A stretch of 64,000 nucleotides of DNA from contig JARVGK010000002.1 in the NCBI GenBank assembly GCA_029762535.1, forward strand, positions 64,001 to 128,000, written 5' to 3'. The stretch comes from Thermoplasmatota archaeon. Lineage in GTDB: Archaea > Thermoplasmatota > Penumbrarchaeia > Penumbrarchaeales > Penumbrarchaeaceae. This document shows positions 23,747 to 62,077 of this stretch, one piece after another (within the stretch, counting starts at the first letter, position 1; each line of letters begins with the position of its first letter). Below the pieces are notes generated by a model, which was given only the letters and a program-made list of their open reading frames with translations, was not told the DNA's origin and searched no databases. A program made the translations under genes and the position numbers.

Positions 23747-24013
23747 TCAATTCTCCTTGGATCTGATTTCCTTTATTGCTTTAAGTACATCTGATTTCTT
23801 TAACATCTTCTCCTTGGCGAAATCACTTCCCCAATGGAGAAGATTTTGGAAATCCTCATCGGTGGGGATGTCGATCTTTTTCAGGACTATCGTTTCGTTC
23901 TCTCCATACATGGCAAAGAACTCACCGGGTTTGAATCCGAGGAGTTCGCGAAGGTCTTTCGGTATCACGATCTGCCCTTTGGAGGAGAGCCTTGTGATGG
24001 TTACTTCGGACAT
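23747..24013 (-). CDS. AbrB/MazE/SpoVT family antitoxin
   Basis: TRLSSKGQIVIPKDLRELLGFKPGE; inverted repeat agtaaga-cca-tcttact (24021-24037) just upstream of the ATG. Confidence 0.9.
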   Translation of the reverse strand: MSEVTITRLSSKGQIVIPKDLRELLGFKPGEFFAMYGENETIVLKKIDIPTDEDFQNLLHWGSDFAKEKMLKKSDVLKAIKEIRSKEN

Positions 24014-24087
24014 GGTAATAAGTAAGACCATCTTACTATTTCATTTTTTCGGGTACTTGTAGACGATCACATTAAACCCCCGAAATT

Positions 24088-24182
24088 GCGAATAACGTCC
24101 TGGGGATATGGGAAGTTGGCCGAAGGCCAATTTGGGTGAAGGGTCTGCAAGACCCGTAACCTCATATCCCCATGTTATCTTC
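24088..24182. repeat. attC-like hairpin
   Basis: atAAC-gtcc-TGGGGATATG-ggaagtt...aatttgggt...aacct-CATATCCCCA-t-GTTat. The stem sequence differs from other copies but still pairs. Confidence 0.9.
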
Positions 24183-24322
24183 CCCGAGCGATAGCGAGAG
24201 TGCAACGGGGTCGAGGCACGAAGTGCCGAAGAAGTTTGAAACCCTGCCGTAAATTCCGTTGTTGCCGTAGTTTTTTCTTACTCTATTCATCGTTCACGTT
24301 CTCCGTGGGGGTGTTCCGTTTA

Positions 24323-26920
24323 TCATGCTTTCAACTCTAATTTTTCATTAAATGCTCCAATGAAATTTGTTTTCAGATCTTCATTGTAGAATGGAAGCCC
24401 GATAATTTTGTATTTCGTATTTTCTGCCAGTATCTCGATTTGATAATTTCCTTCAATGTTTGTTAGGAATTGCTGTTTCCAGTCATCTTTTTCAAGTAAG
24501 TGACTTCCTTTCGGTTCGATGAAAACCTGGTAATAGAGAATTTGTTTGGTTTTTTTCTCTTTTAAGAATAGGACAAAATCTGGTTCAAGAGAATTTCCAT
24601 CTGAAAAGCGATAAAGCTGGAAAATTTTCTGGTTTCTAAGTAGATATATATCTGAATATCTTTTTTGTAATTTATCAATTGCATCGTTTATGAATCTTAC
24701 AAAGTATTTCTCTTCTGATGTTCCATAATTTTCTTCATATACATACCAGTCCTTGTTTTTTAGGTCTAATCGTAAATCTAGTTTTAGAGTTTCACTCATC
24801 CCAATACCGATTTCTTTGTCAGATGTGTCATTTACTGCGATATTGATTATTTTGTCTTCTACTAAATCTTTAATTTTGCTTGCTTTGAATAATATAGTCC
24901 CGACATATTCAGTATAACCAGATTCGATATTGCTTTGAAGTTTCTTCAAAACCTCTGTACATATTTCCAGTTTATCATCACAATTGAGTGAATCTAATTT
25001 TGTAATTGAAGTCGTTACCTCTACCTGAACATCTTTTAAAGCTTCAATGAACTTGCTGATAGATTTTGATTTAGGGAAATATTTTTTCAGGTTATTAAAT
25101 TTGTAAAAATCCAACCTGGTTAGAGATTTTCGCATAATTTGAATTCCGAAGTCGTTCAGTTTAAAAATCTTTGATCTTTTCTCTTCAACATCTTTCTTCT
25201 TTTCCCCGTTGAATATAGTAGAATCTCTAACATATCCTGTTCTGAGACCAATTTTATACAATTTATCGATGTCCAAATCTGATATATCCTTGATTTTAGT
25301 TCTATCTGATTTTTTCTTTTCGTTGATGAATATCAGGCCATTAGACCAAAAATCTGATTTCTTAAACCCATCTTTGACTTTCAAATGGATTTCTCGCTTT
25401 TCCGGTGGCATGATGCCAGATTCCACCAAAGCTGTAGTCAATTCTTGAATGTATCTTGGGTTATGGGCACTGTGGTAATAAAGCTCTTCAAGAATTTTCA
25501 ACTCGTTGTTTGGTTCCTCATCGTATTTTCTCTTGAATCGCTCCTGTTCATCTGTTATTGTGAAAGGAAAATATCTAGCGCCTCTCCCGATAAGTTGGGC
25601 TTCTGCGATGGTCGTTTTACCAGGCTTCCCTGCTTTTGCATCTCTAGTATCATAAAGTCTTACAATGTCAAATAGATTGAGAACATCCCAACCTTCGTTA
25701 AGCATACCGACTGCAAAAACAACCCGAATTTCGTTATCTTTATCCTCAAGCGAATTAACTAGTAACTGTTTCTTTTCACTCTCACTTTTAGAATTGACTG
25801 ATAAACACTTATTCTCATGAAATTCTTCTTTAATCTCTGATACCAAATTCTCCAATGTAATGTCATTTTCTTCAAAATAATTAAAAGCCGTATTAAGAAT
25901 CGATTTTTGTTCAACATTGTTTTTTATTTTTGATATGTCGCTAATTTTCAAGGATTTGATCTTTTTCTTAAATTCATCTTCAATAGTGGTAGATTCATCA
26001 ATGGTTCTGGATTTCAACAGGATTACTGGCTTAATAAATTTCTTATGCTTTTCTGCAATCTTTCGTCTATATTGACTTAGGATGACTGACTGTAATGTCC
26101 TTTCTATTGGCTTTAAATCTGCCTCCATCACTTTGACTTCCTTTGAATACCCGTCTAATCTAAACTGTTTTAATGAGTAATCATAGATTATTTTACTATC
26201 GTATTTATCTCTAATTGCTGGATGACTCAAATCAACGGTGGCGGTATACTCCAGCATGATATTTCCCAGGTTTGAATTGAAGATATTATTTACGGTATGT
26301 TCCCAGGTAGTTTTGGCTAATTTTTCTTCCTTACCCAATTTATTCTTTGTCCAAGCATTGATATGGTGGGCTTCATCGGAAATGATTACGATTTTTTTAT
26401 CCTTGAAGTCCTCGTAAGTCATGCTGTTCTCGCGCGGGGTATTCATGAAACAGTGAAGCCCCTGGATTGTGGTAAAATGGATATTGATCGCATCAGGGTT
26501 AGCACCCTCGAAATTTTCTACCGGACTAATGAAAACCTCTTTTTCTCCAAATTTTATGTGTTCGTTGAACAGATATTTTGATGAAAGTAGATTTAAGAAA
26601 TTATCTTTAGTCTTTTCTATGATGTTGGTACTATTCACAAAGAAAAGAAAATTCCGATAACCTTTCTCATAAAGATAGAGAATATTGGCGGCCATCAATA
26701 ATGTTTTTCCGCTTCCAGTGGCCATGTGAAACAGCAATTGCGTTGGTTTGATTCTCCTTTTATCTTTTTCATAATTATAAATGAATCTGCGTATAGCTTC
26801 CAGTTGATATTCTCTCAATTCAAACAAATGATTCAGATTATTTGTAATATTGTCTGGAATCTCAGTACCCAGCAAGCCCTGTTCTGAAAGAACATCATAC
26901 GTTTCCTTCAAAGTGGGCAT
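24323..26920 (-). CDS. res: Type III restriction enzyme Res subunit (DEAD/DEAH helicase + PD-(D/E)xK)
   Basis: HMATGSGKT, SDEAHH, LNEGWDVLNLFDIVRL, QLIGRGARYFPF, EPDF...IEPKG. Confidence 0.9.
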   Translation of the reverse strand: MPTLKETYDVLSEQGLLGTEIPDNITNNLNHLFELREYQLEAIRRFIYNYEKDKRRIKPTQLLFHMATGSGKTLLMAANILYLYEKGYRNFLFFVNSTNIIEKTKDNFLNLLSSKYLFNEHIKFGEKEVFISPVENFEGANPDAINIHFTTIQGLHCFMNTPRENSMTYEDFKDKKIVIISDEAHHINAWTKNKLGKEEKLAKTTWEHTVNNIFNSNLGNIMLEYTATVDLSHPAIRDKYDSKIIYDYSLKQFRLDGYSKEVKVMEADLKPIERTLQSVILSQYRRKIAEKHKKFIKPVILLKSRTIDESTTIEDEFKKKIKSLKISDISKIKNNVEQKSILNTAFNYFEENDITLENLVSEIKEEFHENKCLSVNSKSESEKKQLLVNSLEDKDNEIRVVFAVGMLNEGWDVLNLFDIVRLYDTRDAKAGKPGKTTIAEAQLIGRGARYFPFTITDEQERFKRKYDEEPNNELKILEELYYHSAHNPRYIQELTTALVESGIMPPEKREIHLKVKDGFKKSDFWSNGLIFINEKKKSDRTKIKDISDLDIDKLYKIGLRTGYVRDSTIFNGEKKKDVEEKRSKIFKLNDFGIQIMRKSLTRLDFYKFNNLKKYFPKSKSISKFIEALKDVQVEVTTSITKLDSLNCDDKLEICTEVLKKLQSNIESGYTEYVGTILFKASKIKDLVEDKIINIAVNDTSDKEIGIGMSETLKLDLRLDLKNKDWYVYEENYGTSEEKYFVRFINDAIDKLQKRYSDIYLLRNQKIFQLYRFSDGNSLEPDFVLFLKEKKTKQILYYQVFIEPKGSHLLEKDDWKQQFLTNIEGNYQIEILAENTKYKIIGLPFYNEDLKTNFIGAFNEKLELKA

Positions 26921-26921
26921 G

Positions 26922-28928
26922 TTATAACACTCCGTAGAAGCGTTTGTTTATTTCTTTGTCCTCGTCTGATACGCCATAATCCTCGTCATCAATTTCGTTG
27001 AAATTAACATAAAGCTGATTTTTATCCAGACACTCAATTAGGAATGCCTTTTGGTTCTCCAAGTCCAAGTCCTTGAAATCTTGAGCATTTTCATCGAATT
27101 GCTTCGGATCTATTCTGTAACTAAGGAAAGCTTCTTTTTTCATCTTATCCCATATTGCCAATAAATCTTTTATTGTCTTTGCTTCTTGAATTTTATCCAT
27201 ATAGGATTCATTCCATTTCATCAGTTCACAATAAATAAATTCACCACCACCTTCCCACTTTACATATTTTGAGATACCAGATTGATCATAATTTTCAATT
27301 TTCTCTATTAATTTACCCTTTGAGTTTGCATTTCCGATAACATTTTTTAATCTCATAAGCGAATCATTTTTACCATAATCCAATTGTTCTATGCCGAGAT
27401 ATTTTCTACCCAACTTATGCGCAACTGCACATGTTGTACCACTACCTAAGAAGAAATCCAAAACAATATCTCCCTTATCAGTTCCCATTTCAATTATTCT
27501 CCTTAAAAGTTTTTCTGGTTTTTTACCACGTTTTAATTTAACATTACCTTCATTAGCAATTCCTTCCCAAGGTATATCCGTCCATATATTTGATAATAAA
27601 TTTGTTGGAACGAGATTACCATCAATGTTTCTAACCTTGTTATTATAAAAAGTAATTTCTTTTCCATTTAAGATATATCTATCAGTTAAATTATCTCTTC
27701 GATTAACAAATACTTTATCCAGATTCTTCAAAGATTCTTCCTTTATGTCTAATGTTTCCTTTCCAGCATCAATGTTTATTTCTGTAAATCGAAAGACTCT
27801 TTCCTTATTATTCAAGGCATAGTCCGCTAATTCAGATAAAGTACGATTTGTTCCTAATTCTTTTTTTAAATATCGACTATTTTTAACCTTAAACTTTTCC
27901 GCAATAATATCTTTAATATTTGAATAAGTCCAATTTGATGGGTTTTCTTCAATATTGTCTATCTGAAATGAATAATTTTCATCATAATTAGTTTCTTCGT
28001 ATTGAGTGATGTACTTCCACAACTTTTTAGACTTTGCATAAATTAATATATATTCGGCACTTTCAAAAACTCCCAAATTTACAGTTTTAAAACCAGACGG
28101 AGATCGAGTTTTTATACTAATAAGATTAATGAAATTATTATCAAATATTTCATCTAGTAATATTCTTAATCTGGATACATGAATGTCGCTAATTTGAATG
28201 AAAATGGCCCCATCCTTACATAGTAATTCTCGTGCAATTTCTAATCTGTTTTTCATAAATGTAAGCCATGTTGAGTAGTTAAAACTATCATTATACTGAA
28301 ACTCATCATTCCCTGTATTGTAGGGAGGGTCAATGTAAATTAATTTAATTTTTCCAGCATATCTTTTTTTCAATGAATGCAAAGCAAGGAGATTATTACC
28401 TTTAATCATGATATTATCTGTTGTTTTAATTTCTTCTATGTTATGCTCTCCTTTTGCATCAATCCGTTTTAAACCAGTCAATACTTTAGGATCGAATAAT
28501 CTGTCAATCTCATCAGGAGCAAGAATTTCATTCCAAAATATTTCTTTGCGATTTTTTTCTTCGGGATCTTCCATTCCGCCTTCCAAAACGCAATCTTTGT
28601 ATGGCCAGGATAGAACCACTTCACTACTTTTTGTTAGGTATTCGTTTTGTGTTGTAAGTCCAATCTTGTTTTTGAAAGTGGTGTACGAATCTGGTAAGAA
28701 TTCTTTGTTATCAACGAATTTCATGAATTTTTCTTTGTCAAAAATGATTGCTTTATTTACAATTTTAAAGAAATGCACTTTTAATTTTTCGTTTTCAAGA
28801 AGGAGGGAAATCAGCTCATCATCGAGTTTAAGACCAAGTTCGATTATTTTATTTTTCAATAATTTATCATCTGAAACTAAACGTTCATCCTTTTTTAATG
28901 TGTCAATCATTTCATCAATTAACGTCAT
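26922..28928 (-). CDS. mod: Type III R-M DNA methyltransferase (Mod, N6-adenine)
   Basis: IKGNNL, IYIDPPYNTGND, KKPEKLLRRII, VLDFFLGSGTT. Confidence 0.95.
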   Translation of the reverse strand: MTLIDEMIDTLKKDERLVSDDKLLKNKIIELGLKLDDELISLLLENEKLKVHFFKIVNKAIIFDKEKFMKFVDNKEFLPDSYTTFKNKIGLTTQNEYLTKSSEVVLSWPYKDCVLEGGMEDPEEKNRKEIFWNEILAPDEIDRLFDPKVLTGLKRIDAKGEHNIEEIKTTDNIMIKGNNLLALHSLKKRYAGKIKLIYIDPPYNTGNDEFQYNDSFNYSTWLTFMKNRLEIARELLCKDGAIFIQISDIHVSRLRILLDEIFDNNFINLISIKTRSPSGFKTVNLGVFESAEYILIYAKSKKLWKYITQYEETNYDENYSFQIDNIEENPSNWTYSNIKDIIAEKFKVKNSRYLKKELGTNRTLSELADYALNNKERVFRFTEINIDAGKETLDIKEESLKNLDKVFVNRRDNLTDRYILNGKEITFYNNKVRNIDGNLVPTNLLSNIWTDIPWEGIANEGNVKLKRGKKPEKLLRRIIEMGTDKGDIVLDFFLGSGTTCAVAHKLGRKYLGIEQLDYGKNDSLMRLKNVIGNANSKGKLIEKIENYDQSGISKYVKWEGGGEFIYCELMKWNESYMDKIQEAKTIKDLLAIWDKMKKEAFLSYRIDPKQFDENAQDFKDLDLENQKAFLIECLDKNQLYVNFNEIDDEDYGVSDEDKEINKRFYGVL

Positions 28929-31405
28929 TTCTTTTCCTCCTTATTATTCGAAATTAAATTCCAGTTTACGCTTCCACAATTACATCTTACGCCACTTTGT
29001 TTCATTCCATCTGCTGTAATTTTCAATATACCACCACAACTATGACATGAAAAGAGATAATATAAATCTTGAAATGCCTCTTTTATAGGTCGAAAGTCTT
29101 TATCACTAAAGTTTATCCAATTATTAAAATGAACGTTTGCATTAATTCCCCATTGTTCAGCATATGTGCGTTTATAAATGCTAGAACGCATTGAATCTAA
29201 TTCTTCAAATTTTGCCGTCTTTTCTGATTTTTCCCAGGAAACTGATGATTTTTTAGCCTTTTTAATTAAGTCCTTATATCCATCCATTAATGGTATTGTA
29301 AAATCACCAAGATCTAGCTGGCCGTTTAATTTGTATCGTACTCGTATCTGTAATGAATCACACACTAGCCCAAAATACTCTTCCAAACCGCGTCTTAATC
29401 TCGAAGCAGCAGAAGGAACATCGTTTCTTGTCAAATCTTCTTCAATTTTACTCCAGAGGTCTGCTTGAAGATTTACTTGAGGCCCTGTATCAACTTTCCA
29501 ATTATAGAATTCAACCATGCAACTCTTATTATCAACAACTCCTTCACTTCTCATTTGATTAGCCCATGTCTTATCATGGGTTGTGATTAAAAATTGTCTG
29601 TTTGGGAAATTTGATGCAAGCACGCGACAAATATCTCGCCTATGATTCGAATCCACAGACATTATTACATCATCTAAGATAATGAGGTCAATAAGACCTT
29701 CTGCCAAACGTTCAGATAGAGCCAAATATAAACAAAGCCCCATACTATCTTGATGACCTTCACTGTGGAGGGCTTGTGGAGAAAAAGCCCCTCGGCCATA
29801 AAAATCAACTTCAAATTTTAATGCCGCCCCATCTGGTGAAATAGTCGCGGAAAAATCTTTTTCGTCTGAACCATGTAATTCTTTATATAATTGCACAAAG
29901 CGATCATTTACATCTTTGTAAAGATTTCCCAATATAGTATCTCTGGAATATTCAAATGTATTTAACAATATCTCTGCTTTTTTATATGAGATACTTGCGT
30001 TTTTAAAATCATTTTTTGCTTTTTCAAGACCTTTTAAATTTTCTTCAAGGCGTGTTAATGTATCCCACGCAGTTTGTTCAGGGGTTATCGGTGGCGCTTT
30101 GGTTTTAACAATTTCTATTAGAGTTTGAAGATTTTGTTTAATTTCCTCAGAAATAAGCATGTGTTTTACTCTGTCGCTATCAAATTCGATCAATGGATAT
30201 TTTTCGAGTGGATTAGCTAATGCTATGGATAACTGATTCAAATCTGACGAACATGTTTTCAATTGGATGCTCCATTCCTTTTCCTCAATTTTATTTAATA
30301 CCTCAATTATTTTATTTATGCTTCCTCTTGTATTGTTCACACGCTTTGATATGGAATCGGACAAAGATGTAATTCTGTTTCTTTGTTGTGATATTTCTTC
30401 AATATCAGTCAATTTTGAGGTAAGATATTCATCTAATTTACCGCTTGGCCACTGTGTATCACACAATGGGCAGTTACCCGTGTCATCGATCATAGATTTT
30501 CCAAGTTCAATTAATTGAAATCGATTGTATGTTTTCAATAATTTCGGATTCGATTTTATAGAGTTTAGAAGATTTCTAAGTTCTTTATCAAATTCAATGA
30601 TTCCTTTTTGATTCTTTTCGTCAAAGGAATTATGAATATTTTGAATATCTTTTTCAAATATAGTAAGATTGACATGATTGTCGTTGATAATACTGGTAGG
30701 TGGCGTAAGGGCCTTTTTTAACGTATCTGAAGAAACCGAATTCAATTCATTACTTTTTAATGTTTTACGTAATTGATTTACGTAATCCAGTAGCATCTTT
30801 TCATTAAATGATGTTGTTTGAATTGTTGCGTTAACCTCACCTTTTTTCTCATCTATTGCTTCTTCTTTTGTCTGCTTTTCTCTTTTAAAAGTATTTTCAA
30901 TATTTACAAATGCTTTTCTTATTATTTCAATGTCTGATATATTTAATAATGCTTGAATCTCCTGGGCACGTGTACTACCATCAGAGGTAATATATTTTAA
31001 AATTTCTCGTCTTGTTAATACATGTTCTCCCCTCGATGCAAGGGATAAAATGGGTTCAAGATTAGGTAAATATTTTTCATCAGATACAACTAACTTAGTG
31101 GGTTGTGCCATATCTCTTTTTATTTCAATAGGAACATTAATTTTTGGAAATTGAATAACTGCACGTACAATAGCATCTTTTGGCTTGTGATCAATATGTG
31201 GGCCACATTCTTTCAATTTGATATTGCGAGTTCCCTCTCCCTTTAAACGAGAAATTCGACCTGTTAAGAGGAAATCAATGGCATCAACAACAGCACTTTT
31301 CCCTGAACCATTTGGCCCCCATATTACTATATTTTTTCCTTGGGGCGTTAGTTTTATATGGGTTATACCCCGCACATTTTCAATTTCAAGCTCAATCAGT
31401 TTCAA
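28925..31405 (-). CDS. Rad50/SMC-like ABC ATPase with zinc hook and possible C-terminal HEPN (RloC-like)
   Basis: GPNGSGKS, coiled coils, CPLC hook, HSEGHQ signature, ILDDV, ITTHD; C-terminal LRRGLEEYF...INANVH. Confidence 0.7.
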   Translation of the reverse strand: MKLIELEIENVRGITHIKLTPQGKNIVIWGPNGSGKSAVVDAIDFLLTGRISRLKGEGTRNIKLKECGPHIDHKPKDAIVRAVIQFPKINVPIEIKRDMAQPTKLVVSDEKYLPNLEPILSLASRGEHVLTRREILKYITSDGSTRAQEIQALLNISDIEIIRKAFVNIENTFKREKQTKEEAIDEKKGEVNATIQTTSFNEKMLLDYVNQLRKTLKSNELNSVSSDTLKKALTPPTSIINDNHVNLTIFEKDIQNIHNSFDEKNQKGIIEFDKELRNLLNSIKSNPKLLKTYNRFQLIELGKSMIDDTGNCPLCDTQWPSGKLDEYLTSKLTDIEEISQQRNRITSLSDSISKRVNNTRGSINKIIEVLNKIEEKEWSIQLKTCSSDLNQLSIALANPLEKYPLIEFDSDRVKHMLISEEIKQNLQTLIEIVKTKAPPITPEQTAWDTLTRLEENLKGLEKAKNDFKNASISYKKAEILLNTFEYSRDTILGNLYKDVNDRFVQLYKELHGSDEKDFSATISPDGAALKFEVDFYGRGAFSPQALHSEGHQDSMGLCLYLALSERLAEGLIDLIILDDVIMSVDSNHRRDICRVLASNFPNRQFLITTHDKTWANQMRSEGVVDNKSCMVEFYNWKVDTGPQVNLQADLWSKIEEDLTRNDVPSAASRLRRGLEEYFGLVCDSLQIRVRYKLNGQLDLGDFTIPLMDGYKDLIKKAKKSSVSWEKSEKTAKFEELDSMRSSIYKRTYAEQWGINANVHFNNWINFSDKDFRPIKEAFQDLYYLFSCHSCGGILKITADGMKQSGVRCNCGSVNWNLISNNKEEKK

Positions 31406-31595
31406 GTTCTTCCCTCGAAGTAGTTTTTAATACGCTGATAATTTTTTTAGTATCAGCTAATTGTCCTGTTGAATTAAGTTCACGAAGCTTATTGATGGTC
31501 ACCACATTAAATTCATCTTTATCATTGAGGTCTGAAAACATTTTATCAAGTATGTGGTCAATCAATGAAGATGTTTGTATTGTTTCGGGAGTCAT
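31392..31595 (-). CDS. Small hypothetical protein translationally coupled to the ATPase
   Basis: 67-aa ORF overlapping both neighbours, with a GGAGGT SD. Confidence 0.65.
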   Translation of the reverse strand: MTPETIQTSSLIDHILDKMFSDLNDKDEFNVVTINKLRELNSTGQLADTKKIISVLKTTSREELETD

Positions 31596-31732
31596 TTATT
31601 TACCTCCTTCATCTGTTCTTCCATCATAATTTCAAATTGTCGGGATATGAGCCACCCCTTCTTCTTACAGAATCCTTTGTATCGTTCGTAAAGGTCTTCA
31701 TCAACACTGAGGGTTACGTTCTTTGAAGGCAT
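31592..31732 (-). CDS. Small RHH/CopG-like protein (46 aa), cassette leader gene copy 3
   Basis: Manual translation MPSKNVTLSVDEDLYERYKGFCKKKGWLISRQFEIMMEEQMKEVNK; ATGA overlap; CTTATATA TATA box upstream. Confidence 0.85.
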   Translation of the reverse strand: MPSKNVTLSVDEDLYERYKGFCKKKGWLISRQFEIMMEEQMKEVNK

Positions 31733-31993
31733 GATAATCACATTCATCTCCAAATGTCAGCAAATGTATATAAGTATTCGCTTTTTCCGTTTCTATTCGT
31801 TGTTCGGAACACCCCCCACGTCCATAGAGTAAGAAAAAATTTGGGTATTCGCTTTGCGAATCCGTTTAACATCCGTTAGCCGAGAGTCTGGACTTGTCCA
31901 GATTTTGGTGGTTCTTTCCGTCTTGTTTCCGTTAAACGAAGGCAACAACGTCATGAATTTACGGTCTCCTTTTCATAGGCATGGTTTCAAATT

Positions 31994-32111
31994 GAAGATA
32001 ACGGAACGCGGGTATGCGAAGTGAATATGTTTCCAGTGCGGTTCCTCAGCAGAGTATTCATTTGGGAGAGCGAGTGCAACGAAGCGAACCGCATACCCGC
32101 GTGTTAAGTCC
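31994..32111. repeat. attC-like hairpin (most proximal)
   Basis: atAAC-gga-ACGCGGGTATGC-gaagt...atttggga...aacc-GCATACCCGCGT-GTTaag: perfect 12-bp stem with a 3-nt bulge next to the core. Confidence 0.9.
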
Positions 32112-32434
32112 TCCGAATGAAGTTATCCTACGGATAACGAAATGAGAATGCAATGAGATCGAGCACCGCAGACCGTTAGGTTGAGGAGCGGAGAAGTTGG
32201 CCAGCCAAGAACGTTGTTCGGGACACGGTGGATTTTTTACTACCAATCTACCCCACAAGGGTTATAGGTCGAGGGTGTCTTGCTTGTAAGTCGAGGGGTT
32301 TGAAATACTTGTCAAACCAAGATTTGACCATGGCGAGGTTTACTATCTTTTGGGTTATCGTTCTGACCATTATTATTTTAGAGTTGCAATATGATTTGTT
32401 CAAATTTTCTGATGAATTCGTAAGTAAAAGAGAT

Positions 32435-35400
32435 TCAATCCTCCTCCTTTATTGGTTTGATGGTTCGAAGGTTCAAAGAAAAAGATCGCCCCTCGATATT
32501 TTCTTCTGGGATATCATCATATCTCGTTATAATAACCTTATCATCAACTTTATCACTGAGGTTTTCCACATTCCATAACTCCCATCGATCCCCACCTTCT
32601 TCCTGACTTAAAAGGAATTCCACATATTCCCTAGAGGTTATGTTTACAATTTTGGAAGAACCTAAATGTGCCTTGACTTCGATCTTAATTTGTTCTCTAT
32701 CACGAATAGCAATGATATCATAGCCTGGATTCTGTTTGGGCATTTGTTCAACTTCGAATCCTTTTAATTCTAACTCTCTTTGAGCAAATGATCTTCCTTT
32801 AGTTTCTATCATCTCATTGTCCTCATATGATGTTCTGTTCCCAGATTTGCCACCACCACCGCCACCAGATGAACCCTTAGTTTCCTCATCAACTCTCTCC
32901 TCTGTATTAACTTCATATTCAGAGTCGTCATCCTTTAATTGAATACCTTCATCTTCCTCTGAATCTGGAGTTCTTTCTTCTCTATTTTGCTCATCAAGTA
33001 ATTTTTCCTTATTGTCTTCTTCACTTTTTGTCGGTTGTTTCGGCTTTTTAGGAAGCATACCAGGAAATGGCTTCTTCGATGGTGGAGTTGACTTTTGTTG
33101 ATCAGAGTCTTTGTGTTTTACATAGTCGTTATTGAATTCTAAAAAAGAGATATCGATCTGTTCATCTGATATTCCGCTGGAAGTCAATTTTTCTCGTCTT
33201 TCGTAATCATTATTACACCTTAAAAGATTTTCATAAGTGTCGGCTTCTCCTGGCACTCCTAAATAAAACGATATTGATCGAGATATTGTAGTTACACTTT
33301 GTTTATCTTCACTTATGAATATTGTTGAACCAACAATGTAAAAATCTCCGGATATTTCGGTTTCATACTTATCAAGTAGTATCAATTTTTTTCGAATTTC
33401 CTTTTTTACTTTAACTTTGATATTTTTAATTCTTTGAATCAATTTCTGATGATCTGATAGTTTATCCGATCTTATCACATATATGTATGAAAGACTGTCA
33501 ATTAGATTTTTCGCCAATTCCGGTTTCAATTGTTTCTCATCATCATTTGTCTCAATTATTTCTTCCTTCAATATATTCTTATCACTAATTTGACGTTTTC
33601 CAAAATACTTACTTACAAACTGGTGATATCTTCTAGATATATTGAAAAAATAAACATCATTATTAAAAGCATTTTTAATCTCCACATCATCATTAATGAA
33701 TATCTCTTTGCTACTTATAATTTGAAATATATTGCTTCTTTCACATAAAAGGGGACAATCATGAAGCAATAATTCAGGAAGTGCTACCATCAAACTATTT
33801 GTTGTATCTAAACATCTTTCGTAGATTTTCATTATTTTGAATCTTAATTCTCGATTATCATTTATATCTTCATCTGAAATGAATTTTATTAATAGGTTGG
33901 ATAATATTTCTTTCCATTCTTCAGGTTTTAATTCATCAATATTTGTTCTAATAATTTTCACTTTATTCTTTAACCAATGAAAAATATTATCCTTTGAACT
34001 CTCAAAAAGATTTAAATTGATAACTGGTAATAAATACCCTATTTCAAAATTATCTTTTTCATTTAATATCCAACATTCTTCCAATGGTTTAGGATCTAGA
34101 TAATGTGTAAGAGGAGGTATGAACTTTGTTTTTAAATCAAACCACCATGATGCATCTGAGTTTCCATAATATAATGCTCTGTTGTATGGTCGATAGTGTA
34201 CTCGAATATTCATATATTCTTCATAGTATTCCCAATTGTTTGCTATTAACTTTAATAAGGATATTTTAGATTTTTCAGGCAATTCGTCTAAATTTATTTT
34301 ATCAAATCTTTTATTATAACTGATTTTTTCAACATTATTATAATCTTCATTCACATGTATCGGAATTTCTTCTGTAGAAATTAATCGGGGAAATGTTTTA
34401 CACCCTAACCATCTTAAGATATCTTGATCAATTATTTTCTCTAAGCTATTGTTTTCTTTTTGTACCCATTGTATATCGTAATGATTGCGAAATAATGAGT
34501 TCAAATCACTATTGCCCCATTCTTTTCCCATATATCCAAATTTGGCTTTTATCCATATAACATCTTTTTTCCCCTTCCTTCTAGATGGAATTGGACAATT
34601 TCTAATTCCTACGGGTGCATTTTCTTCTTTCATCAACCATTTATTTTTATAGATATATCGATAATATATTGAGGGATTATCTTTTTGATTCTTGTTCCTA
34701 CTATCCCAATAATTCTCAATAGCTTTAATTAAAGCTTTTTCTGTAACATTTTCAATTCTCTCTACACCCAATGTTGCTAGGATTTTGTTGACTGAATGAT
34801 GGTTTTCCAATAACTTATCCCCAAACCATTCATCAACAAACACTATCGGCATCCATTTAGGTACGAGATTTTTCTTGTCTTGATCAGATTTCCAAGTGAT
34901 GATTTGACCCTTTGAATTGGCAATTGATATCAGATGATTACCAACAGGAAGTATTGGTAGACTTTTTATAATCTCAATTTTCTCCTCTTCATTGATTTCA
35001 TCTGAATCATGATTAGCCCAATTAGAGAGCCATTTCCAACAAGTCCAAATCCAATCAATATTTCCTGTATTTTTAGATGACTCTTCATTGATTACACTTA
35101 GTAACGTATTATCATCAATCAAACTGCAGTTCATGGATTTTAAAACGTTATATGAAACTTCATTCTCCTCATAACTGAAATGTAACAAGTTGTCACTAAT
35201 ATTTGATGTATTTAAAATTTTACGGGCGTTTGTCAAATCACATGTTGTTGATATAAGCTTTATATCAGAGAAATTTAATAATTTTTCTCCATTAATATTG
35301 CCGAATTTTAAAGTGTTCTTTGAATAATCAACAATCACATCCCAAAATAATTTGGTGATTTCATGACTGTTTCTCTCCTCAAATGGTGATAACAATGTAA

Positions 35401-36532
35401 TATTATTTGCTGGATCACCTTTTAAATATTGCTCATCCACAAATTCAACTAATGTATGAACGAGATTATCCATTATCCATTTATTTAGATTATTATTCTC
35501 TATCGGAAGAATTTCCGTTCTATCACTTTTTACAAAAAAATCCGCATGAAGAAGTATTGGAACTGGGGAGTAGTGTTTTGTCGGATAATACACATGGATT
35601 TTTGGGTAATCGGTCATAGATCTGATTTTACCATCAATGACATATGTACCAACCAGGAAATTAATTCCATCTTCGATAATTCTCGCATTATCTTCTTTAT
35701 CAAGGTTAGATAAGAAATAAGGTGGAATCATATCACCCGACATCGTTTTTCGTTTGATTTTCCATTTCGTTACATCTTCAACGCCATCAATGGTATCATT
35801 GATTACATTTTCCTTATCTATTGTTATTTTCCTTAAGGTTTTACTTGAACCAACAGCATCAATTATCTCCAACATTCTAATATGATGAAATGTTAGGAGA
35901 GTATAATTTTTCAATGAAATTTTATCAAATAATACTTCGTTATCAATTTCCTCAAGATAATTCAATTTAACTACAGTTGACCAATCCGATTGAGAGGTTA
36001 GATATTGATCATTCAAAGAAATATCATCCCAGGATATCGAAAAAGGGATCCATTGATATGGTACATCATCATCTGGAAAACCATTATTTTGTAACCATTG
36101 TTTCGCCTTTTCAAATGAGAATTCTACTCCCTCTCCTCCTATGCTAAATATTTGTGGATTATTTGAAATCTCATAAACAGCTTTGAATCCTAATCCCTTT
36201 CTTCCGATGGTCCCAGATTTTTTAATTGAATAATCCGTTCCACACAAAGATTCAATAGCATCTGGCTGTAATCCTACTCCCTTATCCAAGATATAGACCG
36301 ATTTATCGGTCAACAAAACCTTTACCTCTTTAGATTCTGCATCATCACAATTTTGGAATAATTCGTAAAACCATCGTCCAGTGTGGTCAGAAGTTACTCT
36401 TTCTGCACTTCTTGTGTCTCTGATGATTCGTTTGGGATCTCCTTTATATGTCCCTTGTAATTTTTGGTTGAATAAATCAATTGCCTTTTTAATAGGTTTC
36501 AATATACTATCACCATCGACATACACAATCAT
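32435..36532 (-). CDS. Sacsin/Nov-like GHKL ATPase with C-terminal DUF3883 (PD-(D/E)xK) domain; first cassette
   Basis: YELFQNCDDA, IGRKGLGFKAVY, LLHADFFVKSDR; C-terminal PGYDIIA...KIEVKA; visibly AT-rich. Confidence 0.8.
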   Translation of the reverse strand: MIVYVDGDSILKPIKKAIDLFNQKLQGTYKGDPKRIIRDTRSAERVTSDHTGRWFYELFQNCDDAESKEVKVLLTDKSVYILDKGVGLQPDAIESLCGTDYSIKKSGTIGRKGLGFKAVYEISNNPQIFSIGGEGVEFSFEKAKQWLQNNGFPDDDVPYQWIPFSISWDDISLNDQYLTSQSDWSTVVKLNYLEEIDNEVLFDKISLKNYTLLTFHHIRMLEIIDAVGSSKTLRKITIDKENVINDTIDGVEDVTKWKIKRKTMSGDMIPPYFLSNLDKEDNARIIEDGINFLVGTYVIDGKIRSMTDYPKIHVYYPTKHYSPVPILLHADFFVKSDRTEILPIENNNLNKWIMDNLVHTLVEFVDEQYLKGDPANNITLLSPFEERNSHEITKLFWDVIVDYSKNTLKFGNINGEKLLNFSDIKLISTTCDLTNARKILNTSNISDNLLHFSYEENEVSYNVLKSMNCSLIDDNTLLSVINEESSKNTGNIDWIWTCWKWLSNWANHDSDEINEEEKIEIIKSLPILPVGNHLISIANSKGQIITWKSDQDKKNLVPKWMPIVFVDEWFGDKLLENHHSVNKILATLGVERIENVTEKALIKAIENYWDSRNKNQKDNPSIYYRYIYKNKWLMKEENAPVGIRNCPIPSRRKGKKDVIWIKAKFGYMGKEWGNSDLNSLFRNHYDIQWVQKENNSLEKIIDQDILRWLGCKTFPRLISTEEIPIHVNEDYNNVEKISYNKRFDKINLDELPEKSKISLLKLIANNWEYYEEYMNIRVHYRPYNRALYYGNSDASWWFDLKTKFIPPLTHYLDPKPLEECWILNEKDNFEIGYLLPVINLNLFESSKDNIFHWLKNKVKIIRTNIDELKPEEWKEILSNLLIKFISDEDINDNRELRFKIMKIYERCLDTTNSLMVALPELLLHDCPLLCERSNIFQIISSKEIFINDDVEIKNAFNNDVYFFNISRRYHQFVSKYFGKRQISDKNILKEEIIETNDDEKQLKPELAKNLIDSLSYIYVIRSDKLSDHQKLIQRIKNIKVKVKKEIRKKLILLDKYETEISGDFYIVGSTIFISEDKQSVTTISRSISFYLGVPGEADTYENLLRCNNDYERREKLTSSGISDEQIDISFLEFNNDYVKHKDSDQQKSTPPSKKPFPGMLPKKPKQPTKSEEDNKEKLLDEQNREERTPDSEEDEGIQLKDDDSEYEVNTEERVDEETKGSSGGGGGGKSGNRTSYEDNEMIETKGRSFAQRELELKGFEVEQMPKQNPGYDIIAIRDREQIKIEVKAHLGSSKIVNITSREYVEFLLSQEEGGDRWELWNVENLSDKVDDKVIITRYDDIPEENIEGRSFSLNLRTIKPIKEED

Positions 36533-48048: not shown

Positions 48049-48990
48049 TCAGATCATGCTCGTCCCGGCCCTGCCCTCCAAGGCCTCGAAGCCGTCCTTG
48101 ATGGAGGATATTATCACTTTTTTCCCCCCTCCCTCGAGGAACTGTATTGCCGACTCGATCTTTGGACCCATGGACCCCTTCGGGAACTGCCCCTGCTCGA
48201 GATAGGCCTTTGCTTCCTCCAGTGTTGCGTTGCGGAGCTTTCTCTGGTCCGGAGTGCCGTAGTCGAGGTACACTCCGTCCGCCTCCGTGAGGATCAGAAG
48301 GATCTGCGCCCCGATGTTGAGACCGAGGACGGCGGAGGCACGGTCCTTGTCTATCACGGCATCGACGCCCTCCCAGCGGCCGTCGTTCTCCCTATACACC
48401 GGGATCCCGCCGCCTCCGGCGGCGATGACGATCTTACCGGAGTGGACCAGATCCCTTATCGTTTGGCCGTTGATTATCTGAAGGGGTATCGGCGAGGGTA
48501 CGACCCGCCTCCATCCCCGACCCTTGTCCTCCTTTACCGTCCATCCGAGCCTGTCTCTCAGTTTCAGGGCCTCCTCCTCCGTGTAGAACTGGCCCACGAA
48601 CTTGTTCGGGTCCTTTATCGATGGATCATCGCGGTCCACCTCCACCTGGGTTGCTATCGTTACCACGTCCCTTTCAACGCCTTTTAGGATCAGCCCGTTC
48701 TGCAGAGACTGCTCTATCATGTAACCGATCCCGCCCTGTGTGTCGGCGACGAGTACGCCCAGGGGCAGGTCCGGGGCGACGCTTCTGGCCATCTCGACCC
48801 TCAACAGTGCGTTCCCCACCTGCGGCCCGTTCCCGTGTGTGATCGCCATCCTGTAGCCCTCCTCTATCATTTTGAGGATGGGGGGCAGGCTCTCCCTTGT
48901 GTGCCTGAACTGGTTCTGTATGGTGTCGGGGATCCCTTTCCTGGTTATCGCATTGCCGCCGAGGGCAACGACAACGGTCTTCCTCTTCAT
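48049..48990 (-). CDS. arcC: Carbamate kinase
   Basis: VVALGGNA, THGNGPQVG, GWRRVVPSP, GGGGIPV, AVIDKD, GSMGPKI. Confidence 0.97.
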   Translation of the reverse strand: MKRKTVVVALGGNAITRKGIPDTIQNQFRHTRESLPPILKMIEEGYRMAITHGNGPQVGNALLRVEMARSVAPDLPLGVLVADTQGGIGYMIEQSLQNGLILKGVERDVVTIATQVEVDRDDPSIKDPNKFVGQFYTEEEALKLRDRLGWTVKEDKGRGWRRVVPSPIPLQIINGQTIRDLVHSGKIVIAAGGGGIPVYRENDGRWEGVDAVIDKDRASAVLGLNIGAQILLILTEADGVYLDYGTPDQRKLRNATLEEAKAYLEQGQFPKGSMGPKIESAIQFLEGGGKKVIISSIKDGFEALEGRAGTSMI

Positions 48991-50559: not shown

Positions 50560-51642
50560 TCACGGGATGATCTCGCAGCCGTCGTTTATCCTGGGATGGT
50601 CAAAGCTGTCAGCGGGCAGTATCCCTTCATCCAGCAGGTGCCTGACCTCGGGAAGGGCCTCGCGGAGGAGGTCTATCATCCTCCCGGTCGATACGCATAC
50701 CCTGTCGAACAGTTCCCGGCCCCAAGACATCGTCATATTGGAATACAGGCAGCGTCCCCCGCATATGTCCAATATGTCGCACTCCGTGCATGGCGAGCCA
50801 ACCGGACGGGACCCGGCGATGTCAGAAGGGCGGGATGAACAGATGTGTCCTACGAGCGAATAGGGCAGCTCCGGGGCGATGGGGCACGCGTGTATCTCTC
50901 CCGAGGTCATTATCGAGAACGAGTCGATCCCCGAACCGCATCTGAGGGACGAGGGGATCCCGGTCAGAAGCGTACTCATCAACGGGATGAAAGGCACGAT
51001 CCTGGGCCGCCCCCCCTTGCGGAGGTGATGCAGGAAATGATCGACAAGCCGGGATATGCCATCGTCGTAACGATCGAGGAATCCTGTTATGTCCTCCCTA
51101 TTCTCTATCTCCGACCAGAAAACATCGAGCTGCCAGTGGACATGGTCGAATATTTCGTTCCCGGCATCGAGAAGATGCGTCACGTCCCGAAGTATATCTC
51201 CCCCGTCCGAGAACGCCATCCTTGCAACGAGATCCCCCGTAAAACCCCTATCCCTCATATCCATGACGTTATTCATGACCCTGTCGTACGTCCCCGCACC
51301 CCTGTTGTGATCCGTTATCTCCCGGGATCCGTCTATGGAGACCAGGATCGAATGGAGACGCTTGAGATAGGCATCGGGCAGGCTCTTGAGCAGGGTCCCG
51401 TTCGTCTGCAGCGTGAAGGCCCTTGCAGGGATACGGTCCATTATCTCGACCATCCGATCCACGGCCAGGAGGGGTTCGCCCCCGTAGAAGCCTATCACTG
51501 GACCGTCGTCGAGGGATAGGAACCGGCCAAGCTCCCCGATGTCGTAGGATATGTTCAGGGGCAGGTCCGGTATGTTCCTGGTGCCTCCGCAGTAGCGGCA
51601 GGAGAGATTGCACCTCTCGGTCGTTATGACATGATACTGCAT
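50560..51642 (-). CDS. Radical SAM/SPASM protein (archaeal AF0577/TIGR04084-like)
   Basis: CNLSCRYC, FYGGEPLL, QTNG, DHVHWQLD, RCGSG, CTEC...CGGRC, C-terminal GCEIIP. Confidence 0.85.
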   Translation of the reverse strand: MQYHVITTERCNLSCRYCGGTRNIPDLPLNISYDIGELGRFLSLDDGPVIGFYGGEPLLAVDRMVEIMDRIPARAFTLQTNGTLLKSLPDAYLKRLHSILVSIDGSREITDHNRGAGTYDRVMNNVMDMRDRGFTGDLVARMAFSDGGDILRDVTHLLDAGNEIFDHVHWQLDVFWSEIENREDITGFLDRYDDGISRLVDHFLHHLRKGGRPRIVPFIPLMSTLLTGIPSSLRCGSGIDSFSIMTSGEIHACPIAPELPYSLVGHICSSRPSDIAGSRPVGSPCTECDILDICGGRCLYSNMTMSWGRELFDRVCVSTGRMIDLLREALPEVRHLLDEGILPADSFDHPRINDGCEIIP

Positions 51643-58799: not shown

Positions 58800-58875
58800 T
58801 GGTGCTCCCGACGGAATTTGAATCCGTGTCGCTGGCTCGAGAGGCCAGCATGATTGGCCACTACACTACGGGAGC
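58800..58875 (-). tRNA. tRNA-Glu (anticodon CTC), CCA encoded
   Basis: GCTCCCG acceptor, anticodon arm CTGGC-CTCTCGA-GCCAG, T-arm CGGATTCAAATTCCG, ends ACCA; TTTATAAA box at 58915-58922. Confidence 0.95.
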
Positions 58876-58935
58876 AACCCTTTGTCGTGGTAGAAGCGCC
58901 CAATGAAGAGGTCCTTTATAAATCTTATCGGAACA

Positions 58936-60600
58936 TCACTTGCCTTTGACCTTGGCCCAGGTGTCCCTCAGCGTTATGGTCCTGTTGATCACGAGCCTGT
59001 CGGGATCGCTGTCCGGATCGATGCAGAAGTAACCTAACCTCTCGAACTGGAAACGTGAGAGATGTGGAAGCTTCCCGACGATCTGCTCCACCTTGCACCC
59101 CTTGAGGACCTTCAGCGAATCATGGTCGATATACTCTGTGAAGTCCCCGGGCATCGAGAGGGGATCCTCAACCGTGAATAACTTGTCATACTGCCTCACC
59201 TCGGCATCGATCGCATGTTTGGCCGACACCCAGTGCAGGGTGGACCTCACCTTCCTGCCGTCAGGGGCATCCCCTCCCCTGGAGGCGGGATCCACCTTGC
59301 ACACTATCTCTTTCACCTCGCTCCCGTCCTTGACCACATTCGTGCAGGTGACGAGATACGCGTTCCTCAGCCGGACCTCCCTTCCTGGAGCCAGCCTGTA
59401 GAACTTCGGGGGTGGGTCCTCCATGAAATCCTCCCTTTCGACATACACCTCGCCTGAAAAAGGGACCTTCCTCCTGCCAGCGGATGGGTCCTCGGGATTG
59501 TTGATGACATCCATCTCGTCCTCCCCTTCGTAGTTCTCGATCCTCATCAGCAGGGGGTCAAGTACGCCCATGTAGCGGGGAGACGTCCTGTTCAGGTCCT
59601 CCCTGACGGCGTGCTCCAGCGTCTCTATGGCGATCGTGGAGTTAATCTTCGCGACGCCTATCCGGGAGCAGAAATCCCTGATGGACGCGGGAGAGTAACC
59701 TCTTCTTCTCATACCGCTTATCGTGGGCATCCTGGGGTCGTCCCAGCCGGATACCAGCTTCTTCCGGACCAGTTCCAGGAGCTTCCTCTTGGACATGACG
59801 GTGTATGTCAGGTTAAGCCTTGCGAACTCTATCTGCTGGGGATGATATATCTCAAGTTCGTCCAGGAACCAGTCGTAGAGCGGCCTGTGGTTCTCGAACT
59901 CCAGAGTGCATATCGAATGGGTGATACCTTCTATCGAATCCTCCAACCCATGAGCCCAATCGTACATGGGATAGATGCACCATTCGTCCCCGGTGTTGTG
60001 ATGCGTCGAGTGCAGGATGCGGTACATGACCGGATCCCTCATGTTCATGTTGGGATGCGACATGTCGATCCTGGCCCTCAGGACCTTCTCTGCGTCCCTG
60101 AACTCCCCTTTTCTCATCCTCTCGAACAGCTCTAAGTTCTCCTCAGTGCTCCTGTTCCTGTACTCGCTCTCTATTCCAGGGGCTGTCAGCGAACCTCTCA
60201 TTCTGGATATCTCATCGGCGGTATGGTCATCGACGTAGGCCTTGCCCTTCTTGATCAGGTCCACTGCCCATTTATACATCTGCTCGAAGTAATCCGAGGC
60301 GAAGTACAGCCTTTCCTCCCAGTCGAAACCCAGCCATCTCACGTTATCCTTGATCGAACTGACGTATTCCTCCTCCTCCTTGGCGGGGTTGGTGTCGTCG
60401 AAGCGCAGGTTGCATTTTCCCCCATATTCCCCTGCGATCCCGAAGTTCAGGCAGATCGACTTCGCATGCCCTATGTGCAGGTATCCGTTGGGTTCGGGCG
60501 GGAACCTGGTATGTATCCTCCCATCGAACCTGCCCGAGGCGTTGTCCTCGTCTATGATCTCCCTTATGAAGTCCTTCGGGACCATTTTTTCCTCGACCAT
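58936..60600 (-). CDS. glnS: Glutaminyl-tRNA synthetase, bacterial type
   Basis: [87 protein letters not shown]. Confidence 0.95.
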
Positions 60601-60737
60601 TACGGGTCACCAGTACAGCTAATGCCATGGTACTAATTATATCTGTCAATCGTCGAGTGGGGATTTTGAATAAAGGTCCGAACAATAACCCTGCCGCACA
60701 GCCAAGTATTTATCCCTTGATGTTCGCTCCGGGTCCG

Positions 60738-61577
60738 ATGAAAAGGCTTCGTGGCATGCTCTCCATAATCAGGCCCGAGGACTGTGCCATAAGCTCGATC
60801 GCGGTGTGGGTTGGCCTCGCTGTGTCCTCGAGGAGATTGGTCCCTTCAAGACCCCTGCCGCTATTGATGTGGGGCTTGTCCACGTTCTTCCTTGTGGCGG
60901 CCCTGAACATACTTAACGACATGGGGGATCTCGAGATCGATCGGATGATACACGAGAAGAGGGCACTTGCTTCAGGGAGGATCTCTCTGAGGCTGACCGA
61001 GAGATACCTCCTGGGAGTGATATTGGCCTCGCTCTTATTCGCTTTTATCGGAGCGATGGTCGGAAAGAGCGCTCTGCCCATGCTCATATACATCATCGGT
61101 TTGGGACTGGGATTGTTATACGAGATCAAACTCAAGCGGTTGGGGTTCCTGGGCAACATCGCCATTGCGGTGCTTTTCGCTTTCCCCCTCCTTCTGGGAG
61201 GATCCCTCGAGAGGATCACACTGCTTCTCGTCATACTATGCTCCATGGCGGTCGTCAACGGGCTTGCAAAAGAGGTGATCAACGACGTCAAGGACCTCGA
61301 GGGGGATAGGGGAAAGAGGCCCACTCTACCGCAGTGGATCGGGGTGAAGCCATCGTTGTCCATCGCAGGGACCCTGATCATGGCGACTGTGGGTATGAGC
61401 ATACTGCCTTTGACATTCGTTGGATGGAGCATATCCTACATCATCCTGATCTCCATCTGCGATGCGATCCTGCTATCGGTCATCGTACTTTCCTTCAGGA
61501 GGCCGATGCTGGCGCATAACGTTCACAGCCTGGGGATGCTCGCATCACTTCCAGCCTTCCTCTCGCTTTCGATCTGA
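60738..61577 (+). CDS. UbiA family prenyltransferase (DGGGP synthase-like)
   Basis: NILNDMGDLEIDR and EVINDVKDLEGDR aspartate motifs, LKRLGFLGN, TLP; multi-TM. Confidence 0.8.
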   Translation: MKRLRGMLSIIRPEDCAISSIAVWVGLAVSSRRLVPSRPLPLLMWGLSTFFLVAALNILNDMGDLEIDRMIHEKRALASGRISLRLTERYLLGVILASLLFAFIGAMVGKSALPMLIYIIGLGLGLLYEIKLKRLGFLGNIAIAVLFAFPLLLGGSLERITLLLVILCSMAVVNGLAKEVINDVKDLEGDRGKRPTLPQWIGVKPSLSIAGTLIMATVGMSILPLTFVGWSISYIILISICDAILLSVIVLSFRRPMLAHNVHSLGMLASLPAFLSLSI

Positions 61578-61629
61578 GTAGGATTTGATCTTCCTCCAGT
61601 TCGAACTGGTCGGTTTAATTATAATGTAA

Positions 61630-62001
61630 TGGTAGCCCCGCTAAAATTTCCCCGAAATTTTAGAACACAAGAAAACGGATCCCCACCCCGAAAGAGGCTA
61701 TGATTGTGCAGCCACTATTCCATATAGCCTTCACATTAATAGAGATGGAATAGTGGTAGCCCCGCTAAAATTTCCCCGAAATTTTAGAACACAAGAAAAC
61801 GGATCCCCACCCCGAACATGGCTATGATTGTGCAGCCACTATTCCATATAGCCTTCACATTAATAGAGATGGAATAGTGGTAGCCCCGCTAAAATTTCCC
61901 CGAAATTTTAGAACACAAGAAAACGGATCCCCACCCCGAAAGAGGCTATGATTGTGCAGCCACTATTCCATATAGCCTTCACATTAATAGAGATGGAATA
62001 G
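61630..62001. repeat. Three tandem 124-bp units, each bounded by a copy of the tRNA-Gln 3' end
   Basis: tggtagccccg at 61630, 61754, 61878 and (in the tRNA) 62002; units near-identical with internal hairpins. Confidence 0.95.
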
Positions 62002-62077
62002 TGGTAGCCCCGACCAGATTCGAACTGGTGACAAGAGATCCAGAGTCTCCTATGCTAGACCGCTACACTACGGGGCT
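62002..62077 (-). tRNA. tRNA-Gln (anticodon CTG), archaeal A1-U72 type, CCA encoded
   Basis: AGCCCCG/CGGGGCT acceptor, GGAGA-CTCTGGA-TCTCT anticodon arm, CCAGTTCGAATCTGG T-arm, ends ACCA. Confidence 0.95.

Follow-up and report, generated by a model that had tools for sequence, protein, structure and literature searches.

Window is used here for the whole 64,000-nucleotide stretch that was analysed, positions 64,001 to 128,000 of contig JARVGK010000002.1 (assembly GCA_029762535.1) of an uncultured sediment archaeon of the phylum Thermoplasmatota. It carries glnS, a gene for a bacterial-type glutaminyl-tRNA synthetase (GlnRS), whose product is designated P0001. The results of this study make it likely that P0001 is a working GlnRS, acquired once from a bacterium by an ancestor within the phylum and inherited mostly vertically since, which provides a direct route to Gln-tRNA beside a retained route through glutamyl-tRNA synthetase (GluRS) plus GatDE. 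A genome survey of 2016 found no GlnRS in archaea (PMC5388404), and reviews up to 2022 state that no archaeon has the enzyme (PMC9499178). The reason given for its absence is that archaeal tRNA-Gln has a special identity, which would act as a barrier to GlnRS (PMC2330236). No paper describing an archaeal GlnRS was found in a literature search whose coverage left out subscription journals; GenBank annotates archaeal glnS orthologues.

ARAGORN and Rfam found exactly two tRNA genes in the whole window, and they stand on either side of glnS on the same strand:

58800 to 58875, minus strand: tRNA-Glu(CUC) with G1-C72, A73 and an encoded CCA, 60 nt past the glnS stop (ARAGORN, Rfam)
58936 to 60600, minus strand: glnS, encoding P0001, a bacterial-type GlnRS of 554 aa (TIGR00440, Pfam, E. 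coli GlnRS structures)
62002 to 62077, minus strand: tRNA-Gln(CUG) of archaeal type, 1402 nt ahead of the glnS start (ARAGORN, Rfam)

The tRNA-Gln(CUG) gene reads AGCCCCG...CGGGGCU-A-CCA and has A1-U72, G2-C71, C3-G70, A73 and an encoded CCA. Every detail of the original prediction is borne out; made from the letters of the window alone, it had placed a tRNA-Glu at 60 nt and a tRNA-Gln(CUG) with A1-U72 and A73 at 1.4 kb from a full-length protein of 554 aa collinear with E. coli GlnRS.

P0001 is a GlnRS and not a GluRS, as had been proposed. Its score against the NCBIfam equivalog model TIGR00440 (glnS) was 716.3 bits (cut-off 425.8), and it stayed under the cut-offs of both archaeal GluRS models (349.5 bits with TIGR00463, cut-off 401.75). 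Pfam detected PF00749 (tRNA-synt_1c), PF03950 and PF20974, the last two being C-terminal anticodon-binding domains. Residues 6-551 were aligned with E. coli GlnRS (PDB 1qrs, 1gsg; ca. 690-692 bits) with single-residue gaps only. The HIGH motif stands at residues 42-45 and MSK at 269-271, and both are kept in all 32 aligned archaeal copies. The roles of the Gln-pocket residues are known from the E. coli GlnRS structures, and in P0001 the whole pocket (E. coli R30, E34, D66, Y211, H215, S227, C229, F233 and Q255) is identical, as are the anticodon arginines R341, R402 and R410 and Leu136 of the unpairing loop. The 32 archaeal GlnRS depart from this pattern only in a small number of conservative substitutions, at L136, F233 and M268. 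The unpairing loop (E. coli 132-141), the G36-recognition loop (392-407) and the protruding loop (473-494) are GlnRS-specific modules absent from the archaeal non-discriminating GluRS (ND-GluRS) (PMC2978374). The first two align in P0001 without gaps, and the region of the third contains at most one single-residue gap. The gene is intact and under purifying selection: the ratio of nonsynonymous to synonymous substitution rates (dN/dS) was 0.07 at a dS of 0.21 between P0001 and a 97%-identical relative (L149), a neighbouring gene giving 0.13, and the tRNAs flanking glnS are 100% identical to those of this relative. P0001 resembles E. coli GlnRS (GlnS; PDB 1GTS/1GSG, 1QTQ, 1O0B) in length, domain order, motifs, pocket, unpairing loop and arginines. 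It differs in having an archaeal host and in coexisting with GatDE, and its presumed substrate has A1-U72, C3-G70 and A73 where that of the E. coli enzyme has U1-A72, G3-C70 and G73. As an enzyme, P0001 belongs to a known family and is ordinary within it; its host domain, tRNA partner and coexistence with GatDE are what is unusual.

Neither an appended N-terminal domain nor a C-terminal YqeY domain was found in P0001. The highest NCBIfam score (840 bits) was obtained with NF011291, the GlnRS/YqeY fusion model that describes the Deinococcus radiodurans enzyme with its C-terminal YqeY (PDB 2HZ7; PMC1865053), but the match covered only profile positions 8-559 of 769 and P0001 stops at residue 554, so that it does not belong to the fusion type. 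The GenBank proteins MBN1390757.1, MCK5773719.1 and UCE73978.1 (P0008, P0021 and P0106; 556-562 aa) are named 'glutamine--tRNA ligase/YqeY domain fusion protein'. Since these proteins are too short for a fusion and P0001 has no YqeY domain, the public name is a misnomer for the archaeal clade.

A bacterial fragment mis-binned into an archaeal genome, or a chimeric contig, is a scarcely credible origin of glnS, even though P0001 is 60-70% identical to many bacterial GlnRS and the genome is a metagenome-assembled genome (MAG) of 102 contigs. This MAG (G000; 2.96 Mb, the window being C25:64001-128000) was 93.4% complete with an estimated contamination of 1.08%. It contains a full-length 16S rRNA gene on contig C14 that was assigned to the archaeal small-subunit model in Rfam clan competition (1513 bits), together with archaeal GluRS, GatD and GatE, and the taxonomy check that followed up the original prediction returned an archaeal genome, neither bacterial nor chimeric. 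The glnS gene is native to its place, a contig of 137.6 kb with archaeal-type tRNAs on both flanks. A 97%-identical orthologue occurs in three independent ENA assemblies in the gene order FtsX, aldolase, tRNA-Gln, UbiA, GlnRS, tRNA-Glu, DUF362 and cyclophilin. Orthologues scoring above the TIGR00440 cut-off were counted in 74 of the 401 genomes that made up our sample of the phylum, closed genomes included (among them the single-contig G324 and G396). The host-like base composition that had been predicted was also found: the GC content of glnS, 55.6%, is close to the median of the genome's 739 long open reading frames (55.7%), and GC at third codon positions (77%) lies at the 84th percentile. 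Among named homologues, those closest to P0001 (70-77% identity) are encoded in MAGs labelled Thermoplasmatota, Thermoplasmata and Methanomassiliicoccales. The neighbouring genes were considered as taxonomic markers, and DUF362/ferredoxin, cyclophilin, aldolase, FtsX and UbiA proved not diagnostic.

Two trees were constructed, one of 111 sequences (32 archaeal GlnRS and the 79 most similar bacterial GlnRS) and one of 67 sequences, 51 of them archaeal GlnRS. The archaeal proteins have a single origin in these trees, forming one clade nested within bacterial GlnRS with support in the Shimodaira-Hasegawa-like approximate likelihood-ratio test (SH-aLRT) of 99 for 32 sequences and 97 for 51 sequences. 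Within it, P0001 pairs with the protein of G030, a genome of the window's family (81% identity, support 99), and the inner backbone is without resolution. The sister group consists of Bacteroidota, Cloacimonadota and Myxococcota, with Planctomycetota next. The old horizontal acquisition that had been predicted is thus upheld, and one old transfer from a bacterium to an archaeon would explain the data, while further transfers of GlnRS inside the phylum may have occurred. GluRS was 52-55% identical within the window's family and 33-38% identical to that of families f21 and f43, the corresponding values for GlnRS being 70-81% and 68-70% (L182-L209 vs L089-L118). GluRS is thus much more divergent than the GlnRS of the same genomes, and these identities suggest either that GlnRS evolves very slowly or that its spread inside the phylum came later than the separation of the lineages. 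On the glnS model, ca. 340 bits were scored by the GluRS-like proteins of f21 and 220 bits by the GluRS of the window's genome.

The ancestral route is retained in the host. The genome G000 encodes two GatD (506 and 437 bits; cut-off 324) and two GatE (487 and 461 bits; cut-off 319.55), none with internal stops, and an archaeal-type GluRS (NF003169, 661 bits). The gat genes are arranged as follows:

C58:69639-72883: adjacent gatE-gatD pair, gatE at C58:69639 and gatD at C58:71675 (NCBIfam)
C102:79059-80258: unlinked gatD (NCBIfam, above cut-off)
C12:39898-41802: unlinked gatE (NCBIfam, above cut-off)

The two copies are 38% identical in GatD and 29% in GatE, values so low that the copies must be paralogues of old standing rather than variants between strains. 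The gene set of the ND-GluRS and GatDE pathway of Methanothermobacter thermautotrophicus (PMC2943598, PMC2330236, PMC2978374), consisting of archaeal GluRS, GatD and GatE, is therefore present in G000 along with a tRNA-Gln bearing A1-U72. Unlike in that organism, GatDE is not the only possible route in G000, and gatD and gatE are duplicated. All 23 other genomes of the window's family have gatD, seven of them with two matches. Including G000, two gatD matches were seen in 8 of the 24 family genomes; they were also seen in G008, of a sister family that lacks GlnRS. The suggestion that GlnRS possibly replaced GatDE accordingly fails for the window's own genome and holds for sister lineages. Of the 401 phylum genomes, 42 are without gatD; by hand count, GlnRS occurs in 28 of these 42, compared to 48 of the 359 with gatD. 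Neither gatD nor gatE was found in the four genomes, 88-93% complete, of family f3, which belongs to the same class as the window. These gatD-less carriers of GlnRS, together with f3, indicate that GatDE was replaced repeatedly in relatives.

Two tRNA-Gln genes, CUG and UUG, were the only ones detected in G000. They share the same acceptor stem, and both have A1-U72 and A73, the combination that defines archaeal tRNA-Gln (PMC9499178). The GlnRS-linked tRNA-Gln keeps A73 in the window's family, in f9, f10 and f22 and in part of f13, whereas in f21 and f43 the tRNA-Gln flanking GlnRS has G73, with A1-U72 or G1-U72 kept. Compared to the G73 loci of Thermoplasmatota, the window's family keeps A73 on both of its two tRNA-Gln and keeps GatDE (twice). 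In the phylum, A73 and G73 were each seen both with and without gatD, so that all four pairings occur. In f3, the GlnRS-linked tRNA-Gln(CUG) has A1-U72 and A73 and is 88% identical to the tRNA-Gln(CUG) of the window with an identical acceptor stem; the UUG isoacceptor of f3 has G73. If the f3 genomes are representative, an A73 tRNA-Gln(CUG) in a family without GatDE implies that the archaeal GlnRS clade can charge A73 tRNA, and this would be the best evidence that GlnRS of the window's type charges archaeal-type tRNA-Gln. G73 and A73 genes also stand together beside GlnRS in three gatD-positive genomes: G004 (L161) has two CUG tRNA-Gln, one G73 and one A73; G375 (L110) has two UUG tRNA-Gln, A73 and G73; and G159 (L092) has an additional tRNA with A73 whose anticodon is unreadable. 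Such mixtures suggest two parallel tRNA sets.

The original prediction had taken G73 as a mark of the tRNA-Gln of E. coli, which is right for E. coli, but G73 is not a bacterial rule. In five Bacteroidota with a GlnRS of the sister group, all seven tRNA-Gln genes have A73 and none has G3-C70, indicating that G73 is no general requirement of bacterial GlnRS. The GlnRS of these Bacteroidota (L034, L040, L055, L081 and L085) share the PNM motif (E. coli 181-183) with P0001, and two of them (L040 and L081) have N235. Their tRNA-Gln resemble that of the window in having A73 and no G3-C70 and differ in having U1-A72 and bacterial bodies, and the enzymes are only 61-64% identical to P0001. Myxococcota of the same sister group have a tRNA-Gln with the E. 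coli pattern, G3-C70 and G73. For the Planctomycetota relatives, a BLAST search with a Chloroflexota tRNA-Gln query found no tRNA-Gln. The sole novelty that the imported enzyme met at the acceptor end may thus have been A1-U72 in place of U1-A72, both of which are weak pairs.

From the conserved residues and the E. coli structures, the function of P0001 was hypothesised to be as described below. The beta-barrel domains would read the anticodon (C34 or U34, U35 and G36) via the conserved Arg410, Arg341 and Arg402. The unpairing loop with Leu136 would open the weak first pair, here A1-U72 rather than U1-A72, and the Rossmann-fold site with its Gln-specific Arg30/Tyr211 pocket would attach glutamine directly to the unmodified archaeal-type tRNA-Gln, A73 included. 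The ancestral route of archaeal GluRS and GatDE is fully kept alongside; since the direct route stands beside it, the window's family would represent a coexistence stage. Related lineages have gone further, through a change of the discriminator to G73, loss of GatDE, or both. We infer that A73 tRNA-Gln is charged and that both routes are used simultaneously.

Several observations weigh against this hypothesis. Archaeal tRNA-Gln is not charged by the GlnRS of E. coli or of yeast (Tumbula et al. 2000, cited in PMC2330236 and PMC9499178), and G73 and G3-C70 are strong determinants in E. coli (PMC9976931), whereas the tRNA-Gln of the window has A73 and C3-G70. On the enzyme side, the idea that P0001 is adapted to archaeal tRNA identity elements, part of the original prediction, gained no support, as no residue tracking A73 versus G73 holds against the bacterial controls. 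The E. coli GlnRS mutant D235N mischarges. P0001 also has Asn at position 235, like the structure of that mutant (1QRS, the top PDB match), and N235 was considered as an adaptation to A73/C3-G70; it is found in all 32 archaeal proteins, but also in 18 of the 79 bacterial relatives, including Myxococcota whose tRNA-Gln has G3-C70 and G73. Five GlnRS columns separate the A73 from the G73 archaeal groups, and only one, E. coli position 183 (Met), lies near the acceptor stem; it was rejected as an A73 marker because the G73-using Myxococcota have Met there too. GlnRS was found in 13 of the 23 other genomes of the window's family, among them each of the five with a completeness of 95% or more, and not in the remaining 10. 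In one of these 10 (G053, 90% complete), tRNA-Gln(CUG) is present and no GlnRS was found in the 12-kb stretch around it. GlnRS may therefore be dispensable in the family, and GatDE may be its core route. That f3 lacks GatDE is read from MAGs of 88-93% completeness. Finally, the sister group was considered as the source of the gene, and its support is just moderate (65 with 111 sequences, 92 with 67), so that no donor lineage is assigned.

Other explanations of the same data were weighed against the coexistence of a working GlnRS with GluRS and GatDE. It is unlikely that the isoacceptors are divided, with GlnRS serving only the linked tRNA-Gln(CUG) and tRNA-Gln(UUG) staying on GluRS and GatDE. 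The similarities among the tRNAs of G000 fit such a division, because tRNA-Gln(UUG) shares 89% identity with tRNA-Glu(UUC) and only 75% with tRNA-Gln(CUG), which in turn is 66% identical to tRNA-Glu(CUC), while 95% identity is seen between the two Gln isoacceptors of f2, a sister family that has no GlnRS; GlnRS is also linked to the CUG isoacceptor in most of the phylum loci examined. However, a Glu-like anticodon arm of tRNA-Gln(UUG) occurs in GatDE-less genomes as well, including the closed G324, where GlnRS must charge it. Furthermore, both isoacceptors of G000 share the acceptor stem and A73, and the residues with which the E. coli enzyme takes either C34 or U34 are conserved. A more far-reaching change, in which GlnRS has become the only route to Gln-tRNA, GluRS has turned discriminating and the two GatDE sets have taken other roles, is less probable still. 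Related lineages live without GatDE, the age of the GatD and GatE paralogues leaves room for a changed function, and no amidotransferase is needed for Asn since G000 has AsnRS and lacks GatB. Against this, the four gat genes score above their equivalog cut-offs and contain no stops, and within the family gatD is universal and GlnRS is not. The tRNA-Gln of the host keep A1-U72, the determinant for GatDE (PMC2330236). When GluRS was compared over 28 genomes, some with GatDE and some lacking it, no column tracked GatDE loss in both deep clades.

It is very improbable that the gene is kept without charging the tRNA-Gln of the host, be it as a moonlighting paralogue or as a recent, poorly matched import. 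That archaeal tRNA-Gln is reported to be orthogonal to the GlnRS of E. coli and yeast, and that A73 and C3-G70 depart from the E. coli identity set, is what such a gene would lead one to expect, but selection on glnS is strong, the active-site and anticodon-binding residues are conserved over 32 archaeal sequences, the gene is old and phylum-wide, and there are lineages that have A73 tRNA-Gln and no GatDE. A working GlnRS beside GluRS and GatDE is thus the explanation that we prefer. A stronger form of it is conceivable but doubtful, namely that a pathway replacement at the level of a domain is seen in the window's family at its first, still unmodified stage, in which a bacterial GlnRS would charge fully archaeal tRNA-Gln without any retuning on either the enzyme or the tRNA side, beside two GatDE systems and with the isoacceptors possibly split.

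The surroundings of glnS give some indication of how the locus was formed. The following features lie between glnS and tRNA-Gln(CUG):

60634 to 60642, minus strand: TATA-like ATATAATTA, read from the sequence, 34-42 nt upstream of the glnS ATG
60720 to 61577, plus strand: UbiA-family prenyltransferase, DGGGP-synthase-like (Pfam UbiA, 90 bits); the longest reading frame starts from 60627, and 60720 is the likelier start

The TATA-like element ATATAATTA is a candidate archaeal promoter of glnS. The UbiA-family protein scored 159 bits with NF009523 and 134 bits with NF009521, both under the cut-offs, and its gene is called as 285 aa in close relatives (L149-L151). A tblastn search did not find this gene in any of 14 related loci with GlnRS or with tRNA-Gln only. 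The distance from tRNA-Gln to glnS in related loci is 0.1-0.7 kb where the gap is readable and 1.3 kb in the nearest relative, G030. The UbiA-family gene, placed between tRNA-Gln and glnS by insertion, is a bystander. The order tRNA-Gln(CUG), GlnRS, tRNA-Glu(CUC) on one strand recurs in other genomes of the window's family, where glnS is followed by tRNA-Glu(CUC) in L098, L102, L116, L118 and L163-L166, and in most of the phylum's GlnRS loci that were examined tRNA-Gln(CUG) adjoins the synthetase gene. In the GlnRS-less family f2, tRNA-Gln(CUG) and tRNA-Glu(CUC) are only 4-6 nt apart, suggesting that GlnRS was inserted in what was probably a tRNA tandem.

Some other features were observed in the window and its genome. 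A low-GC island extends over window positions 24000-36500 (30-35% GC vs ca. 52% in the flanks) and contains four large open reading frames on the minus strand (865, 668, 826 and 1365 aa). Window 50560-51642 on the minus strand encodes an AF0577-family radical SAM/SPASM protein, which passed the cut-off of TIGR04084 with 331 bits, and a carbamate kinase is encoded at window 48049-48990, ca. 1.6 kb from it. Elsewhere in G000, there are three tRNA-Cys(GCA) genes, and at C8:6704-8233 ARAGORN, with introns allowed, calls a tRNA-Glu(UUC) whose intron would be 1447 nt long; this intron may be an artefact.

These results indicate that, contrary to the reviews, a transfer of GlnRS to archaea did occur and was fixed in a large archaeal radiation. 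In the window's family, GlnRS stands beside tRNA-Gln genes that have the whole set of archaeal identity elements, and GatDE has been kept. The hypothesis of a tRNA barrier is thereby made directly testable, and the phylum offers natural intermediates for the exchange of indirect for direct aminoacylation. A GlnRS/tRNA pair of unusual identity may also interest genetic-code engineering. If the window's family is indeed at the unmodified first stage, then together with its G73-changed or GatDE-less relatives it would form a natural stepwise series, and the view of archaeal tRNA-Gln identity as a barrier to GlnRS would be overturned.

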